From Enterobacter phage CC31: a stretch of DNA of 64,000 nt. The stretch lies in sequence record NC_014662.1. One strand, written 5' to 3'. This document shows positions 49,621 through 55,964 of this stretch, one piece after another; position 1 is the stretch's first letter; every line of letters starts with the position of its first letter. Made by a program: the position numbers and the translations under genes. The notes under the pieces were generated by a model, which ran no database searches, was not told the DNA's origin, and worked only from the letters and a program-made list of their open reading frames with translations.

Positions 49621-50598
49621 TTATTTCAGCATAGTTACTTCAGCAATTTCAGTCCAGTTTTTCTCGTCGGTAGCGACGAAATCTGCCAGGTAAAGAGCTG
49701 TGCGGAGAGATACATTACGAAGGCGATTAACGTTGTTTTGCATAAATGCCAGAACGTCAAGTACTTGGTAGTGTTTTAAGCCGCGGTTCTGCAACATGTC
49801 GGTTGTCATAATAACATCTTCAACGCGAGACATGATTTCTTCGTTTGTGTGAACACCGAGGTCCAGATAAACAGAACGAGATACCAAAGCAGAAAGATGA
49901 GGAGCTAATTTGCTACCACGTTCTAATTCTTTATCAATATCAACGTTTGTGATGAAGACGACAGTACCTTCAAATTCAAATTCGTTTGGAATATCTTTTT
50001 CTTCCAGGAAAGCAGAAGCAGTTGACCAGCAAACTTTACGTTTTTCGCCAGAATCAAGAGCAGCTTTCAGAAGGTTCAGGATGTCCATATCAGAAAATAC
50101 GTCCACATCATCAATAAGCAGAACAGAATTTGAATGACGAGATTCCCAGAGACGGCAGTAAAGACCGATGCCAGAAATCTTACCGTTAACCATTTTGTAT
50201 TCAATATCACCGCGAGCATCTGCTTTAGTTAATGCTTTATCTAAGGAGAAAGTTTTACCGATACCAGCAGCACCTGAGATAATCAGTGAACGAATGTTTC
50301 CGTTAACCAGACCAGCAGTCATTAACCCCATAACGTTGAAGCGTTTAGCGATACGTGCTTTCATTTCTTCAACAGATTCGGTCAGAACTTCTTTAGTTAC
50401 TTGACCTTCAATTTTGTAATCACCGTGGAAAACCCATACTCCACGTTTCTTACCATCAATCATTACGAATACTTTACCATCACCCTGAGCAGCGTCAGCT
50501 TCAGATAAATCTTTTGGGAACCACTGATCAATGAATTCAAAAGTACCAGAAATTTCTTTACCGAAGTTAGTACCTTTGGTGATAGTGATGGTTTTCAT
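49621..50598 (-). CDS. P-loop NTPase (AAA-like) hypothetical protein
   Basis: 325 aa from ATG 50596-50598 (GGAGA RBS); Walker A GAAGIGKT, Walker B VLLIDDVD. Confidence 0.65.
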   Translation of the reverse strand: MKTITITKGTNFGKEISGTFEFIDQWFPKDLSEADAAQGDGKVFVMIDGKKRGVWVFHGDYKIEGQVTKEVLTESVEEMKARIAKRFNVMGLMTAGLVNGNIRSLIISGAAGIGKTFSLDKALTKADARGDIEYKMVNGKISGIGLYCRLWESRHSNSVLLIDDVDVFSDMDILNLLKAALDSGEKRKVCWSTASAFLEEKDIPNEFEFEGTVVFITNVDIDKELERGSKLAPHLSALVSRSVYLDLGVHTNEEIMSRVEDVIMTTDMLQNRGLKHYQVLDVLAFMQNNVNRLRNVSLRTALYLADFVATDEKNWTEIAEVTMLK

Positions 50599-50669
50599 TT
50601 TTGTTCTCCGAGTTTCTATTTGTTTGGTATGAGGTAATAGTATCATCATCTCATACCGTTGTAAACAAT

Positions 50670-50933
50670 TTATTTTAATGTCCGCCAAATTTTTACTGCT
50701 TCTCGTCTAGAAACTTCTACAGCTCCAAGCTCTACAGCTTTTTGACGACGGTCTGCACGCAAGTCATAGTGCTTAATGCGTTTGTCCTGGAACCAAGAAC
50801 GTTTCATTCCGATTGCTTCTGCTACTTTATGTAGCTCTTCGATATCTCCATCAGTGAACATATGACAATTTTTAGTTGGATGACCACGAAGCTTCCAACC
50901 ATGATTCATTAGAACATCTACGTAAACTGTCAT
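50670..50933 (-). CDS. DUF4031-like protein
   Basis: 87 aa; MTVYVD...CHM..D...ELH..A..IG.KR.WFQ...HYDL pattern recalled for the DUF4031 family. Confidence 0.55.
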   Translation of the reverse strand: MTVYVDVLMNHGWKLRGHPTKNCHMFTDGDIEELHKVAEAIGMKRSWFQDKRIKHYDLRADRRQKAVELGAVEVSRREAVKIWRTLK

Positions 50934-51291: not shown

Positions 51292-51319
51292 TTTGTTCTC
51301 CTTTGGTTTTGATAGTGCT

Positions 51320-51350
51320 ATAATACCATATGCTATAGCGCTTGTAAACA
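51320..51350 (-). promoter_or_regulatory. T4-type early promoter
   Basis: minus GTTTACA (plus 51344-51350), about 18-nt spacer, TATTAT (plus 51320-51325). Confidence 0.4.
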
Positions 51351-51356
51351 TTATTT

Positions 51357-51641
51357 TTAAGCAATGTATGGAGTTGCTGAACCGTCTGAGTAACGCGCCC
51401 ATACTTCATTGCCAACGTTGAAAAGTTTTGCTTTACGACCATTAGGCATCTGAACCATTTTGCTTTTAACCGGAGTTACAGCTTCAATCAACGTTCCAGC
51501 AGCTTTTGCATTTTCTTTAGTTTTAAGAATTTTTTCCATGTATTCAACGTATTCGATGATAGCAGGTGCCATATGCTGTTTGTGGCCCATACCGCCAAAA
51601 TCGAATTCAGTTACTGCGTAGAAAATTTTTGAAGTAGCCAT
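51357..51641 (-). CDS. hypothetical protein
   Basis: 94 aa from ATG 51639-51641; upstream TTG-start extension overlaps the promoter -10. Confidence 0.5.
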   Translation of the reverse strand: MATSKIFYAVTEFDFGGMGHKQHMAPAIIEYVEYMEKILKTKENAKAAGTLIEAVTPVKSKMVQMPNGRKAKLFNVGNEVWARYSDGSATPYIA

Positions 51642-51682
51642 TTTATTATCCTTGATTTTGTTACCGTTTAGTTGATAGAGAT

Positions 51683-51712
51683 ATAGTATCAAAACTTAAA
51701 GCATCTGTAAAC
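51683..51712 (-). promoter_or_regulatory. T4-type early promoter
   Basis: minus GTTTAC (plus 51707-51712), 18-nt spacer, TACTAT (plus 51683-51688). Confidence 0.45.
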
Positions 51713-51734
51713 ACTTTTTGAAAACTTTCTTCAA

Positions 51735-51760
51735 AAACAACAAAACCTCCCGAAGGAGGT
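51735..51760 (-). terminator. intrinsic terminator ACCUCC-UUCG-GGAGGU + U-run
   Basis: 6-bp stem with tetraloop 51745..51760, plus-strand A-rich run upstream; abuts stop of 51760..52020. Confidence 0.65.
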
Positions 51761-52020
51761 TATTTTGAGTGTTTTTCTAGCTGGCGTTCAGCAAACAGTT
51801 TAGGTTGATACAACAACCAACTTAAGATATGCCAGATGACTTTTATGACACCGACAGGCAGCCATAATATAATACTAAACAAGTAATTAAAAGGTGTCTC
51901 TATGTACCCTCGTTTAACGAGAGCATTTGTGATGAGCCACCCGGCGGCTAGATAAACCAATGCAATAAAGACAGGCATAATCCACCATAGTTGAGCCAAA
52001 AGTAAAGTAACCATAATCAC
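51760..52020 (-). CDS. small membrane protein
   Basis: 86 aa, three hydrophobic segments. Confidence 0.55.
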   Translation of the reverse strand: MIMVTLLLAQLWWIMPVFIALVYLAAGWLITNALVKRGYIETPFNYLFSIILWLPVGVIKVIWHILSWLLYQPKLFAERQLEKHSK

Positions 52021-53027
52021 CTGTAGTAAGAGTTGTGGTTCGCCAGATAAACCTCTTCAAGGAACTCGTCCCAGAATGTCATGTCAACTTTATCAGGCAT
52101 ACCGTTTTTAGAAGCGATGATGCTTTGACGTTCAACTTCATCTACACAGTTTTCTAACCATTCTTGAACTTCTTTGAATGGAATAGTGCCAGCTTTAACT
52201 TTCTTGATGAACTCAGCATCTTTAAGCGGATAAACCAAATCACCTGTGGTGTAGATTTCCTGGAGCTGAAGACCACCACGAAGAGCATGAGATAGAGCTT
52301 TCCAGTCTACGCCTTCGTTAGCTTCTGCTTTACGAGCACGTTCACCATATTCATTCCACAGCTTAGTGAGACTGTATTTCATTTCGGCAACAGTGATTGT
52401 TGTCTGGAATTTACGGCCAAGCACATTATAGAACTTCTGAACACCAGATTTGTGGTCAACAAAATCAGTCCACTCAAGGAACTCTGAAGTTGGAAGCAGA
52501 TGAGCAATATCAGCAACTTTCCAACGAACATTATGAGCTTTATCTTTTGGACGGTCTTCGTATTTCCATTCTGGATAAGGCTCTAATACTTCAAGAACTT
52601 TACGAAGTTCAGCTAAACGAGAACCTTTGACACCATACTTAGCTGCTTGCTTACGAACATAACCAAGATAAGCTTTCATATCGGTGGTGTAGAAGCGCCA
52701 GCGGTTATCTTGAATGAATTTCCATACTTCAGGAAGTTCAGACTTAACAACCATATTTGCAGGAGTATGAAGCATATCAAGCGCGACAGTTTCACCTGTA
52801 GCTGCTAATTGCAGGAAGTACTTCAAAGAATAGAGTTCATGGTCAACATCATCATGGGAGTTCTTTGTTGATGTGTTGTTTGTATTCAAATTGGTGTGAT
52901 TCATTGCACGGCCAAGAAGAATTTCCTTCGGATGAGGAACGAAGATTTCTTTGAAGTCCGTGTCACTTTCTGGTGTTGACGTACCATAAAGATGGCTACC
53001 GAAGTAGCCTTTCATAATTGTTTTCAT
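52017..53027 (-). CDS. Pol-beta-superfamily nucleotidyltransferase-like protein
   Basis: 336 aa; N-terminal YFGSHLYGTSTPESDTDF fits the G[SG]-x(9-13)-DhD nucleotidyltransferase signature. Confidence 0.6.
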   Translation of the reverse strand: MKTIMKGYFGSHLYGTSTPESDTDFKEIFVPHPKEILLGRAMNHTNLNTNNTSTKNSHDDVDHELYSLKYFLQLAATGETVALDMLHTPANMVVKSELPEVWKFIQDNRWRFYTTDMKAYLGYVRKQAAKYGVKGSRLAELRKVLEVLEPYPEWKYEDRPKDKAHNVRWKVADIAHLLPTSEFLEWTDFVDHKSGVQKFYNVLGRKFQTTITVAEMKYSLTKLWNEYGERARKAEANEGVDWKALSHALRGGLQLQEIYTTGDLVYPLKDAEFIKKVKAGTIPFKEVQEWLENCVDEVERQSIIASKNGMPDKVDMTFWDEFLEEVYLANHNSYYR

Positions 53028-53449
53028 AGATAAATGTGTTGTCCTTTGGCAAATTTTACTAGCTCATTGGTAATTTTAACACATTGTTCAACGTGTTCTT
53101 TATCTTCGCTTTTCTTTGAAGTTCTATTAATATTTCCAACTTTCTGCTGAGAATAATAGTATTTCACTTCATGCGTATGATATTCTTGGCCATCTGGATG
53201 TTGTTCCCGCTGAACATGTTCTTTTAAAACAGTTTCATAGAGTGGAACTAATGCCCAATCACTTCCGATATTAATGATTGCTACTTGAATGTCAATCTTA
53301 TTCCACTTAAAAGCATTAACATATCCAAGTACCCTTTGAGAAGGGTCCATCATAGCAAATTTTATTCCGGAAATAGAAGCCATTGGCATTTGTTTTAGTA
53401 ATGACATACTAAGTTTTTTCTTAGTAGTTACAACTTCTATTTCAATCAT
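53024..53449 (-). CDS. hypothetical protein
   Basis: 141-aa ORF, ATGA-coupled to nucleotidyltransferase gene. Confidence 0.5.
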   Translation of the reverse strand: MIEIEVVTTKKKLSMSLLKQMPMASISGIKFAMMDPSQRVLGYVNAFKWNKIDIQVAIINIGSDWALVPLYETVLKEHVQREQHPDGQEYHTHEVKYYYSQQKVGNINRTSKKSEDKEHVEQCVKITNELVKFAKGQHIYL

Positions 53450-54000
53450 TTAGTAGGTTGACCCCATGTGAATTGACCACCAAATGCCGAAATCAGAGAA
53501 GTGTCATTCAGATTCACTGGCAGACCGTCACCGCTTTCAGATTCGAGGAACATTGTACCACCATTTTTAGTGATAGCAATTACAGTGAATTCTTTAGAAC
53601 CTTTTTGGAATACATCACCAACAACTACTGGAATATTTTTGAAACCGGAAGCTTCAGCTTCATATGTTTCTGTGTATCGGCCTTCTTTTGGTCTGAAATT
53701 AGTAAAATCAACTAAATACTTGTTACGGTTTGAAGTTACATACACATTAGTAACGCCATATGATGTAATTTTATCTTCGCTATAAACGAAGAGTTCAATC
53801 ATAATACGAGTTGAATATACTTTTAAAACAGCTCGTTGATTTTTATTAATTTTAAGGAAAATATGAGTTGTTCCTTGACACCGGCTAATAAAATCAATTT
53901 CACCATCAAATTCTGTAGTTCCAGATTGAACTGTAATTGAGCGTCCAACTTCAAGTTCTTTCTTTACCAGACCTTTAGCTTTTACTTGACGAATAAACAT
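53446..54000 (-). CDS. hypothetical protein
   Basis: 184-aa ORF. Confidence 0.55.
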   Translation of the reverse strand: MFIRQVKAKGLVKKELEVGRSITVQSGTTEFDGEIDFISRCQGTTHIFLKINKNQRAVLKVYSTRIMIELFVYSEDKITSYGVTNVYVTSNRNKYLVDFTNFRPKEGRYTETYEAEASGFKNIPVVVGDVFQKGSKEFTVIAITKNGGTMFLESESGDGLPVNLNDTSLISAFGGQFTWGQPTK

Positions 54001-54009
54001 AATATTTTC

Positions 54010-54231
54010 CTATACGAAGCGCCATGAACCATTACGATAAGCAATTGCACGGTCCATCAAGTCAGAAGCAGTTGATGTACCTTTCAGGTTGTTATGAACA
54101 ACTCGAATAATTTTGCCATCAGGGAAAGTGAATTCTGCTACCGGGAAGAGGCCCATAAGGCCTCGTTCAACCGTTGCATTAAACTTTGCAGATTCACCAT
54201 TAATTACATAATTGTGGTCTTGTTTAAGCAT
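54010..54231 (-). CDS. hypothetical protein
   Basis: 73-aa ORF. Confidence 0.5.
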   Translation of the reverse strand: MLKQDHNYVINGESAKFNATVERGLMGLFPVAEFTFPDGKIIRVVHNNLKGTSTASDLMDRAIAYRNGSWRFV

Positions 54232-54683
54232 TATTTAAATTCCAGAGTTGGGCAGAACTTCTCTTTACGAGCCTTAATGAAAGCGATAATGATATTAGGC
54301 TGCGGTGGAACGTAAGTGCCATTTTTACGAGCTTCCCATTCGGCAGCTTCTTTCTTTTCTTTTCGACGAGAGATTACTTTATAAATTCCGTAACCAATAC
54401 AGAAAATTGTACCAAAGACCGCGGCCAGAATAAGCCAACCAACAATCAACCCAGGAATAATTGCTGCCGCAGAAGACAGAACTACACCGCATTTAGCGAA
54501 CAGCCAAGTTGCTAAATCAACACCAGAACCCCAACCAGCGAAACATACAGCGAACGCGGCGAAAGCCAGAAGGAATGTATGCCATACGCCTTTCCAAAAG
54601 TATGGGCACAGAGAACGTGGGGCGCTTTCAGCACCATTCATAGTAACGAGTTTGTAGTGCCAAGAGTTAGTATTGATTTGCAT
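54231..54683 (-). CDS. membrane protein
   Basis: 150 aa, multiple TM-like segments, basic C-terminal tail. Confidence 0.55.
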   Translation of the reverse strand: MQINTNSWHYKLVTMNGAESAPRSLCPYFWKGVWHTFLLAFAAFAVCFAGWGSGVDLATWLFAKCGVVLSSAAAIIPGLIVGWLILAAVFGTIFCIGYGIYKVISRRKEKKEAAEWEARKNGTYVPPQPNIIIAFIKARKEKFCPTLEFK

Positions 54684-55408: not shown

Positions 55409-55698
55409 TGCATTTCCTTAATAGCTTTTAAGAAGTTATCAAGATTCTTTTTACTGCAAAAAGATACGCAGCCATAGCTTCCATCTTTTGCTTCAAAAGT
55501 AAATGAATCATCACCATAATCAGTGTAATCAATATTAGGACATTGATTACATTCAATCAGATGTGCTTTGTCCAGACGAAAATGGATTTTGAACAAATCT
55601 TCATCATCTACATGACCAAGTTTGCAAAAGTTTCCACGTACTTCAAGAACCAGAGGACCATGTACTGAACCGCTTTCAAATGTATGTTTCATAATCAC
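55405..55698 (-). CDS. hypothetical protein
   Basis: 97-aa ORF, ATGA-coupled. Confidence 0.5.
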   Translation of the reverse strand: MIMKHTFESGSVHGPLVLEVRGNFCKLGHVDDEDLFKIHFRLDKAHLIECNQCPNIDYTDYGDDSFTFEAKDGSYGCVSFCSKKNLDNFLKAIKEMQ

Positions 55699-55964
55699 CT
55701 CAGCTGTGAATCTTTTGAACCGCGTCTGTTGTAAGACGCTTTAATAATAGTGTCATGTGAGCTTTGGCAAGCTACGCATCGGGTGCATCCTTTTTGAGCT
55801 TTGCGTCTAGCTTCCGGAATTTCTCCGTCACAATCTTCACAGTATTTTTCGCTCTCACGATTTTGAGATTTGATGAGCTCTAAACGAGCCCATTCAATTC
55901 CATCACTTACTGTAGCTTCAATAGCTGCAAATCCGTCGTCACTTGGACCCCATCCACTTGCCAT
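55695..55964 (-). CDS. DksA/TraR-family C4 zinc-finger protein
   Basis: 89 aa; CEDCDGEIP-x17-CTRCVAC spacing typical of TraR/DksA zinc finger. Confidence 0.6.
   Translation of the reverse strand: MASGWGPSDDGFAAIEATVSDGIEWARLELIKSQNRESEKYCEDCDGEIPEARRKAQKGCTRCVACQSSHDTIIKASYNRRGSKDSQLR

Follow-up and report, generated by a model that had tools for sequence, protein, structure and literature searches.

NrdC.11 of Enterobacter phage CC31, an RlaP-family nucleotidyltransferase with a clade-specific insertion and a candidate role in tRNA repair

The minus strand of a 64,000-nucleotide stretch of Enterobacter phage CC31 (sequence record NC_014662.1; the whole stretch is referred to here as the window) encodes a 336-amino acid (aa) nucleotidyltransferase (NTase) of the DNA polymerase beta (Pol-beta) superfamily. 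The protein is a member of the RlaP family (PF10127, “RNA repair pathway DNA polymerase beta family”), it has an intact catalytic signature and a Pol-beta NTase fold, and it is the orthologue of NrdC.11 of phage T4. By analogy with its bacterial relatives, the enzyme probably carries out untemplated nucleotide addition at RNA 3′ ends, assisting phage tRNA repair after RloC-type excision at a step between Pnkp and Rnl1; this reading is held with moderate confidence. Neither the family assignment nor the gene, a routine orthologue that has been catalogued before, is new. What is new is a conserved insertion of 100 residues and a limit on the evidence that the gene neighbourhood can supply.

An initial annotation of the window, made from its letters alone, had proposed a Pol-beta-type NTase at this position, and the open reading frame (ORF) is real. 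Its product begins with MKTIMKGYFGSHLYGTSTPESDTDF, the peptide quoted in that annotation starting at residue 8. G10-S11 and D22-x-D24 match the hG[GS]-x(9-13)-DhD spacing typical of the Pol-beta superfamily. This short motif alone is weak evidence, since the window’s six-frame stop-free stretches, 37,001 residues in all, contain four matches to it. The family-level evidence, formed by PF10127, phrog_388 and the conserved residues, is far beyond chance. In Pfam the protein reaches 52.8 bits on PF10127, where the cutoff is 23 (E=5.9e-14), the same family is matched by every one of the 117 clade members, and the PHROGs match to phrog_388 (“nucleotidyltransferase”) has an E-value of 5e-129. In an alignment of 117 homologues, with identity down to 25%, the residues G10, G15, S21, D22, D62, G78, G228, K243, H247, A248 and R250 are invariant, and S11 and D24 are among others conserved at 90% or above. 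D22, D24 and D62 are the predicted metal-binding triad expected of such an enzyme, with D62 lying on a predicted strand adjacent to the catalytic strand. Searches of the protein against PADLOC gave no match and those against NCBIfam nothing credible; a weak NCBIfam match to the GatB C-terminal region (E=0.01) was rejected, as no structural match lends it support.

The NTase aligns with T4 NrdC.11 (NP_049709.1) at 67% identity and with zero gaps, both proteins being 336 aa long. The T4 protein has the same catalytic residues and the RefSeq product name “nucleotidyltransferase”, and its gene occupies the same slot and strand in the tk-rI-...-nrdC.11-nrdC.10 block. On sequence and position, then, the window gene is the nrdC.11 orthologue. 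The placement of the gene in the nrdC-tk region was correct, as synteny with the T4 rI/tk block and nrdC.10 confirms, and the earlier suggestion of an unspecified T4 nrdC.x counterpart can now be given its name. The nucleotidyltransferase match of nrdC.11 was already noted in 2006 (PMC1524935), and T4 NrdC.11 has been listed as a PF10127 family member in cluster 5 of a sequence similarity network, in a study whose assays were performed on Pseudomonas RlaPs (PMC12776372). The window itself derives from a Karamvirus-like relative of T4, and its nucleotide identity to Enterobacter phages EcL8g and KaAlpha is 95%. The protein is present in 1,522 phage records (tblastn), and its relatives form 3,270 clusters at 50% identity, of which the best 150 are almost all full-length. 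Longer homologues of 359-402 aa were scanned for domain fusions and no extra Pfam domain was found in them; the 270-aa homologue P0238 has a partial VWA match.

Many of these homologues carry misleading names (e.g., P0016, P0058, P0107, H35, H36 and H49). “Thioredoxin” is frequent in GenBank and UniRef, apparently through a mix-up with the gene name nrdC, and others are labelled “HNH homing endonuclease” or “ArsR family regulator”. None of the three labels is compatible with the PF10127 match; they are annotation errors that continue to spread.

The Pfam hidden Markov model aligns only with residues 6-136 of the NTase, because an insertion of about 100 aa interrupts the alignment. The clade profile was therefore compared by hhalign with two RlaPs of canonical length, a 256-aa Bacillus plasmid protein and a 252-aa Curtobacterium plasmid protein. 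The former was matched with a probability of 99.7% (E=3.8e-26) over template residues 19-251 and the latter with 99.3% (E=9e-21) over residues 18-249. At the level of sequence profiles, the homology of the NrdC.11 clade to canonical RlaPs is unambiguous over both the NTase and the helical domains. The D-x-K-x3-H-x2-R motif of the helical domain is common to the clade and to both plasmid proteins. Bacterial RlaP has the same two-domain plan, in which an N-terminal NTase is followed by a C-terminal helical domain closed by a terminal helix, and the same three conserved acidic residues. The differences are that the NrdC.11 clade is phage-borne and that canonical RlaPs, at about 250 aa, lack the interdomain insertion. 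This insertion is laid out as a long helix, a short helix, a three-stranded beta-meander and a second long helix, and its conserved positions are K134-G135-S-R137, R205-K206 and Y227-G228-x-R230-A-x2-A234. No recognisable fold relative was found for it.

The AlphaFold model (AF2; predicted local distance difference test, pLDDT, 90.8) consists of a minimal NTase and a helical domain with a cleft between them, in agreement with the Pol-beta fold expected at the outset. Its closest structural matches are HalB, the structural-genomics protein 3c18, the kanamycin (ANT(4′)) NTase and LinB. DrrA, GlnE and MNT-HEPN complexes are further neighbours among the matches listed, all at identities of 8-15%, and the C-terminal half of the model resembles HEPN-like helical bundles. 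Among PDB sequences, in a copy that does not include the crystal structure of Pseudomonas fluorescens RlaP (PfRlaP), the single protein sequence gave nothing meaningful and the clade profile found nothing at E≤10, HalB chains included. Given these low identities and the lack of a profile match, the structural matches represent fold-level resemblance only. The initial annotation had put forward CD-NTase (cGAS/DncV-like nucleotidyltransferase), OAS, MNT and CCA-adding enzymes for comparison. The MNT-HEPN complexes do appear among the neighbours, whereas the structural matches listed include no CD-NTase, cGAS, OAS or CCA-adding enzyme.

The functional reading draws on the bacterial family. RlaP takes its name from a link with RNA ligases. 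It has been described as the commonest NTase in jumbo phages, where it follows RNA ligases in its distribution, and it has been predicted to restore, before ligation, the nucleotides removed by nucleases such as RloC (PMC7824862). Two Pseudomonas RlaPs were characterised in a December 2025 preprint by Carruthers, Fatma and Huang (PMC12776372). They add one or two nucleoside monophosphates (NMPs), or dAMP, to an RNA 3′-OH, with Mn2+ preferred and with low nucleoside triphosphate (NTP) specificity. They label RNA and neither DNA nor E. coli proteins; in total RNA, rRNA- and tRNA-sized species and full-length tRNAs are labelled. Given a cleaved-tRNA mimic, they favour the 3′ end in the anticodon loop over that of the acceptor, and they partially rescue aminoacylation when a tRNA lacks one nucleotide. 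In its crystal structure, PfRlaP has an NTase domain and a helical domain with a closing C-terminal helix (all PMC12776372). Of the functional options offered in the initial annotation, modification of RNA 3′ ends thus appears, from the RlaP family, to be the right choice.

It is plausible on these grounds that Asp22, Asp24 and Asp62 hold two metal ions, with the helical domain (K243, H247, R250) and the 100-residue insertion lining the cleft for NTP and RNA. The pathway would start with a host RloC-type anticodon nuclease that cuts a tRNA and removes its wobble nucleotide. Phage Pnkp would heal the ends, NrdC.11 would restore the nucleotide on the 5′ half of the tRNA, and Rnl1 (or Rnl2) would seal the break, so that some functional tRNA is rescued and translation can continue. 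The T4 Pnkp/Rnl1 pair is the textbook viral RNA repair system that defeats the host anticodon nuclease PrrC. Simple re-ligation should fail after the action of RloC-type nucleases, which excise the wobble nucleotide as well. In the Karamvirus reference genome PG7, rnlB, pseT and rnlA lie 60-90 kb from nrdC.11; healing and sealing enzymes are therefore available in trans in the phage lineage. We infer that the in vivo target of NrdC.11 is nuclease-damaged tRNA.

Gene context among relatives is consistent with the published association with RNA ligases, without being independent proof of it. In 32 diverged viral lineages, whose cassettes were verified by Pfam and PHROGs, several arrangements with repair genes were found. 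One lineage (L081) has successive, overlapping genes for the NTase, an HD protein and an Rnl2-type ligase; two (L077, L084) have the NTase, an ATP-ligase and RtcB in this order; and one (L075) has Rnl1 and a metallophosphoesterase ahead of the NTase. Marine contigs (L006-L009) place a PF09414 ligase 0.6 kb upstream of the NTase, and RtcB is encoded 2.6 kb upstream of a homologue on a Deferribacter plasmid. An HD gene lies downstream of the NTase at a distance of 0-708 bp in five lineages of one subclade (L078, L079, L089, L092 and L081), overlapping it in three and following 0.3-0.7 kb behind in two. The stand-alone HD protein is of about 170 aa, and among PHROGs it is matched best by the HD portion of a phage tRNA nucleotidyltransferase. 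It is possible that the two genes form a split pair of NTase and 3′-end-healing phosphohydrolase.

NAD+ salvage genes were also observed within a few kb of the NrdC.11 gene, namely NAMPT in nine lineages, NMNAT-Nudix in seven and phosphoribosyl pyrophosphate synthetase in four. These are Aeromonas/Vibrio-type and metagenomic relatives (loci L059-L086; e.g., L065:12450-13946, L053:7084-8157 and L082:13314-14153), and the proximity may reflect a shared accessory-gene region only.

Several points weigh against the tRNA repair role. The addition of one or two NMPs to RNA 3′ ends has been shown for bacterial relatives only, and the same activity of the phage enzyme is argued by analogy. The insertion is foreign to canonical RlaPs and could alter the substrate. 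Untemplated addition with little NTP specificity would supply the correct nucleotide in a minority of events (PMC12776372). In the window and in all T4-like phages, the NTase gene is not beside an RNA ligase or Pnkp gene; bacterial rlaP, as in Pseudomonas fluorescens and P. aeruginosa, sits in an rtcB-rlaP-rtcA operon, whereas the T4-like nrdC.11 lies outside any RNA-ligase operon. Against a rough null of random placement, a ligase or RtcB gene within 3.5 kb or 10 kb was no commoner than expected (P=0.24 and 0.36). The adjacency of the HD gene does depart from this null (P about 4e-4), but it comes from the one subclade, whose members share 48-58% identity. Finally, T4 survives a deletion from nrdC.11 to mobD.3 on a laboratory host (PMC9825161). 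This tolerance fits an accessory role and is silent on which one.

Among the alternatives, the enzyme could repair or complete the 3′-terminal CCA of phage or host tRNAs, as a simplified substitute for the CCA-adding enzyme after exonucleolytic or toxin damage. This is unlikely, although the class II CCA-adding enzyme is likewise of the Pol-beta superfamily and catalyses untemplated nucleotide addition to RNA 3′-OH ends. The HD gene of the five lineages resembles the HD part of tRNA nucleotidyltransferase, and the labelling of full-length tRNAs by bacterial RlaPs points in the same direction. However, the non-catalytic domains of the class II enzyme differ from those of the window NTase, and C, C, A specificity is not expected of the latter from bacterial RlaP biochemistry, with its low NTP specificity and its preference for the anticodon-loop end. 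The NTase protein has no match to the PolyA_pol/CCA-enzyme family in Pfam, NCBIfam or PHROGs, the structural matches listed contain no such enzyme, and no tRNA genes were found in the window.

It is very unlikely that the enzyme instead nucleotidylylates a protein or small molecule, in the manner of MNT antitoxins that AMPylate HEPN toxins, of DrrA and GlnE, or of the ANT and Lnu enzymes. The structural neighbours and the HEPN-like C-terminal half of the model speak for it. The kanamycin NTase and LinB differ in their small-molecule substrates. Those two enzymes and 3c18 share 8-12% identity with the NTase and have no sequence-level relationship to it, the resemblance to all these neighbours being one of fold. 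Furthermore, bacterial RlaPs labelled RNA only, the protein has no Pfam match to PF01909 (NTP_transf_2), and no HEPN-toxin partner gene was found in the survey of 93 loci that encode an NrdC.11 homologue, from which the gene-family counts given below are taken.

Similarly low odds attach to the tailing of host tRNA or mRNA 3′ ends for takeover, either as inactivation or as a decay mark, as MenT-type NTase toxins do on tRNA. Such tailing would use the same chemistry with the same low NTP specificity; in total RNA, the species labelled by bacterial RlaPs include those of rRNA and tRNA size, and the gene lies within an accessory gene block. On the other side, the recurrent genomic partners of the family are repair enzymes and not nucleases or toxins, there is no immunity- or antitoxin-like partner, and addition is limited to 1-2 nt.

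The least probable alternative is that the enzyme serves counter-defence by making or altering a nucleotide signal, whether as a HalB-like synthase of an oligodeoxyadenylate that shuts a Hailong-type effector or through CD-NTase/OAS-like synthesis or capping, since the likeness to HalB (PDB 9dbh, 9dbi and 9dbj) is of fold only, at 12% identity over 137 of the 336 residues; the RlaP homology spans both domains; the protein matches no CD-NTase/SMODS/OAS or CBASS (cyclic-oligonucleotide-based antiphage signalling system) model in Pfam, PADLOC or the structural matches listed; and the 93 loci hold no conserved effector-like partner. HalB is a 217-aa protein without the NrdC.11-type insertion, its product is an oligodeoxyadenylate rather than an RNA extension, and it partners with the HalA effector, of which there is no conserved equivalent among the NTase loci; the 86-aa membrane protein gene downstream of the NTase is present in only 23 of the 93. 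The suggestions of signal synthesis, capping or opposition to a signalling defence in the initial annotation thus found no backing, and its interpretation as a whole is partly supported. There is a similarly slight chance that the invariant insertion, with its basic motifs, gives the NrdC.11 type a counter-defence job of its own in the synthesis or extension of a signal or decoy, for example an oligonucleotide of the HalB type by which a host effector is silenced. If so, that job would differ from generic RNA-end repair and tRNA nucleotide restoration.

Table 1. Features of the nrdC.11 region in the window; residue numbers refer to the NTase.
Feature	Position	Strand	Remarks
NTase gene, nrdC.11 orthologue, RlaP-family (PF10127) Pol-beta nucleotidyltransferase	52017..53027	minus	336 aa + stop; ORF, PF10127, phrog_388, AF2 model
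N-terminal minimal NTase domain	52632..53027	minus	residues 1-132
G10-S11 of NTase domain	53000..52995	minus	
D22-x-D24 of NTase domain	52964..52956	minus	
Third carboxylate D62 of NTase domain	52844..52842	minus	
Clade-specific insertion	52317..52631	minus	residues ~133-237
C-terminal helical domain, common to canonical RlaP	52020..52316	minus	residues 238-336
Motif D241-W-K243-x3-H247-A-x-R250 in C-terminal helical domain	52307..52278	minus	
Perfect 6-bp hairpin with UUCG tetraloop	52994..53009	minus	GGCUAC-UUCG-GUAGCC; -7.7 kcal/mol; inside NTase ORF, codons 7-12
184-aa gene (phrog_10164)	53446..54000	minus	upstream; ATGA-coupled to 141-aa gene; in 16/93 loci
141-aa gene (phrog_7981)	53024..53449	minus	upstream; TGA stop overlaps NTase ATG (ATGA); in 9/93 loci
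86-aa membrane protein gene (phrog_6166)	51760..52020	minus	downstream; in 23/93 loci
Intrinsic-terminator-like hairpin	51744..51761	minus	AACCUCC-UUCG-GGAGGUU, then UUGUUGUUUU; consensus scan; directly after membrane gene
DUF4031 protein gene, 87 aa	50670..50933	minus	Pfam E=8e-21; between nrdC.11 and nrdC.10; family in 10/93 loci
nrdC.10 orthologue (AAA+/STAND-like ATPase, phrog_1250)	49621..50598	minus	conserved syntenic downstream neighbour in T4-like phages
89-aa protein gene	55695..55964	minus	C4 zinc-finger pattern CEDCDGE...CTRCVAC; relatives’ counterpart annotated as DksA-like zinc-finger protein

The features of the region are collected in Table 1. The order of transcription is the 184-aa gene, the 141-aa gene, the NTase gene and the 86-aa membrane protein gene. 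The ATGA overlaps reported in the initial annotation are real and are seen as plus-strand “tcat” at 53024-53027 and 53446-53449. The gene order given there was reversed because the genes lie on the minus strand; the NTase gene is preceded by the 184-aa and 141-aa genes and followed by the membrane protein gene. The GTG start of the membrane protein gene overlaps the NTase stop (GTGA), and it has an alternative ATG start at 52014. A terminator-like hairpin closes the four-gene unit. Promoter-like sites around the NTase gene number 14, against 10.6 ± 3.1 in shuffled sequence, which is not above expectation, and no dedicated promoter is claimed for this reason. Functional coupling of the NTase to the adjoining genes was rejected, as their families occur in only 9-23 of the 93 loci and such lineage-restricted genes are not its partners.

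The hairpin within the NTase ORF begins 18 nt past the start codon. Some relatives keep it and others with the same G-Y-F-G-S peptide do not, so that it was dropped as a conserved element and looks like a by-product of codon choice.

The surroundings of the gene differ from those in T4. The homing endonuclease gene mobD lies upstream of nrdC.11 in T4, while the window has the pair of 184-aa and 141-aa genes instead; the 184-aa protein has no similarity to T4 MobD.1. Five small genes, including those of the membrane protein and the DUF4031 protein, separate nrdC.11 from nrdC.10 in the window, unlike in T4. The small genes just past the membrane protein gene are present in only 3-8 of the 93 loci. 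Members of the nrdC.10 family stand in 36 of the 93 loci; these are all T4-like, and no diverged lineage has one. The AAA matches of the nrdC.10 product in Pfam are weak. Its listed ORF (49621..50688) opens with a TTG at 50688, from which it would overlap the DUF4031 gene. The start is probably the ATG at 50598, 30 codons downstream, judging from a PHROG match that begins at residue 31 of the listed ORF and from the annotation of relatives, which also favours that ATG. Several Karamvirus genomes that are otherwise 92-95% identical (H10-H25) lack 10-14% of the 3-kb stretch 51300..54300, and their matches therefore come in two pieces. This patchiness fits the hyperplastic region described in the initial annotation.

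For the window, the practical value of the analysis lies in a correction of annotation and in the record of a clade-specific insertion. For the family, the NrdC.11 gene occurs in some 1,500 sequenced phages, T4 among them, and laboratory growth does not require it. Should NrdC.11 restore the wobble nucleotide, the phage repair pathway would have its missing third enzyme, and the arms race a further step.

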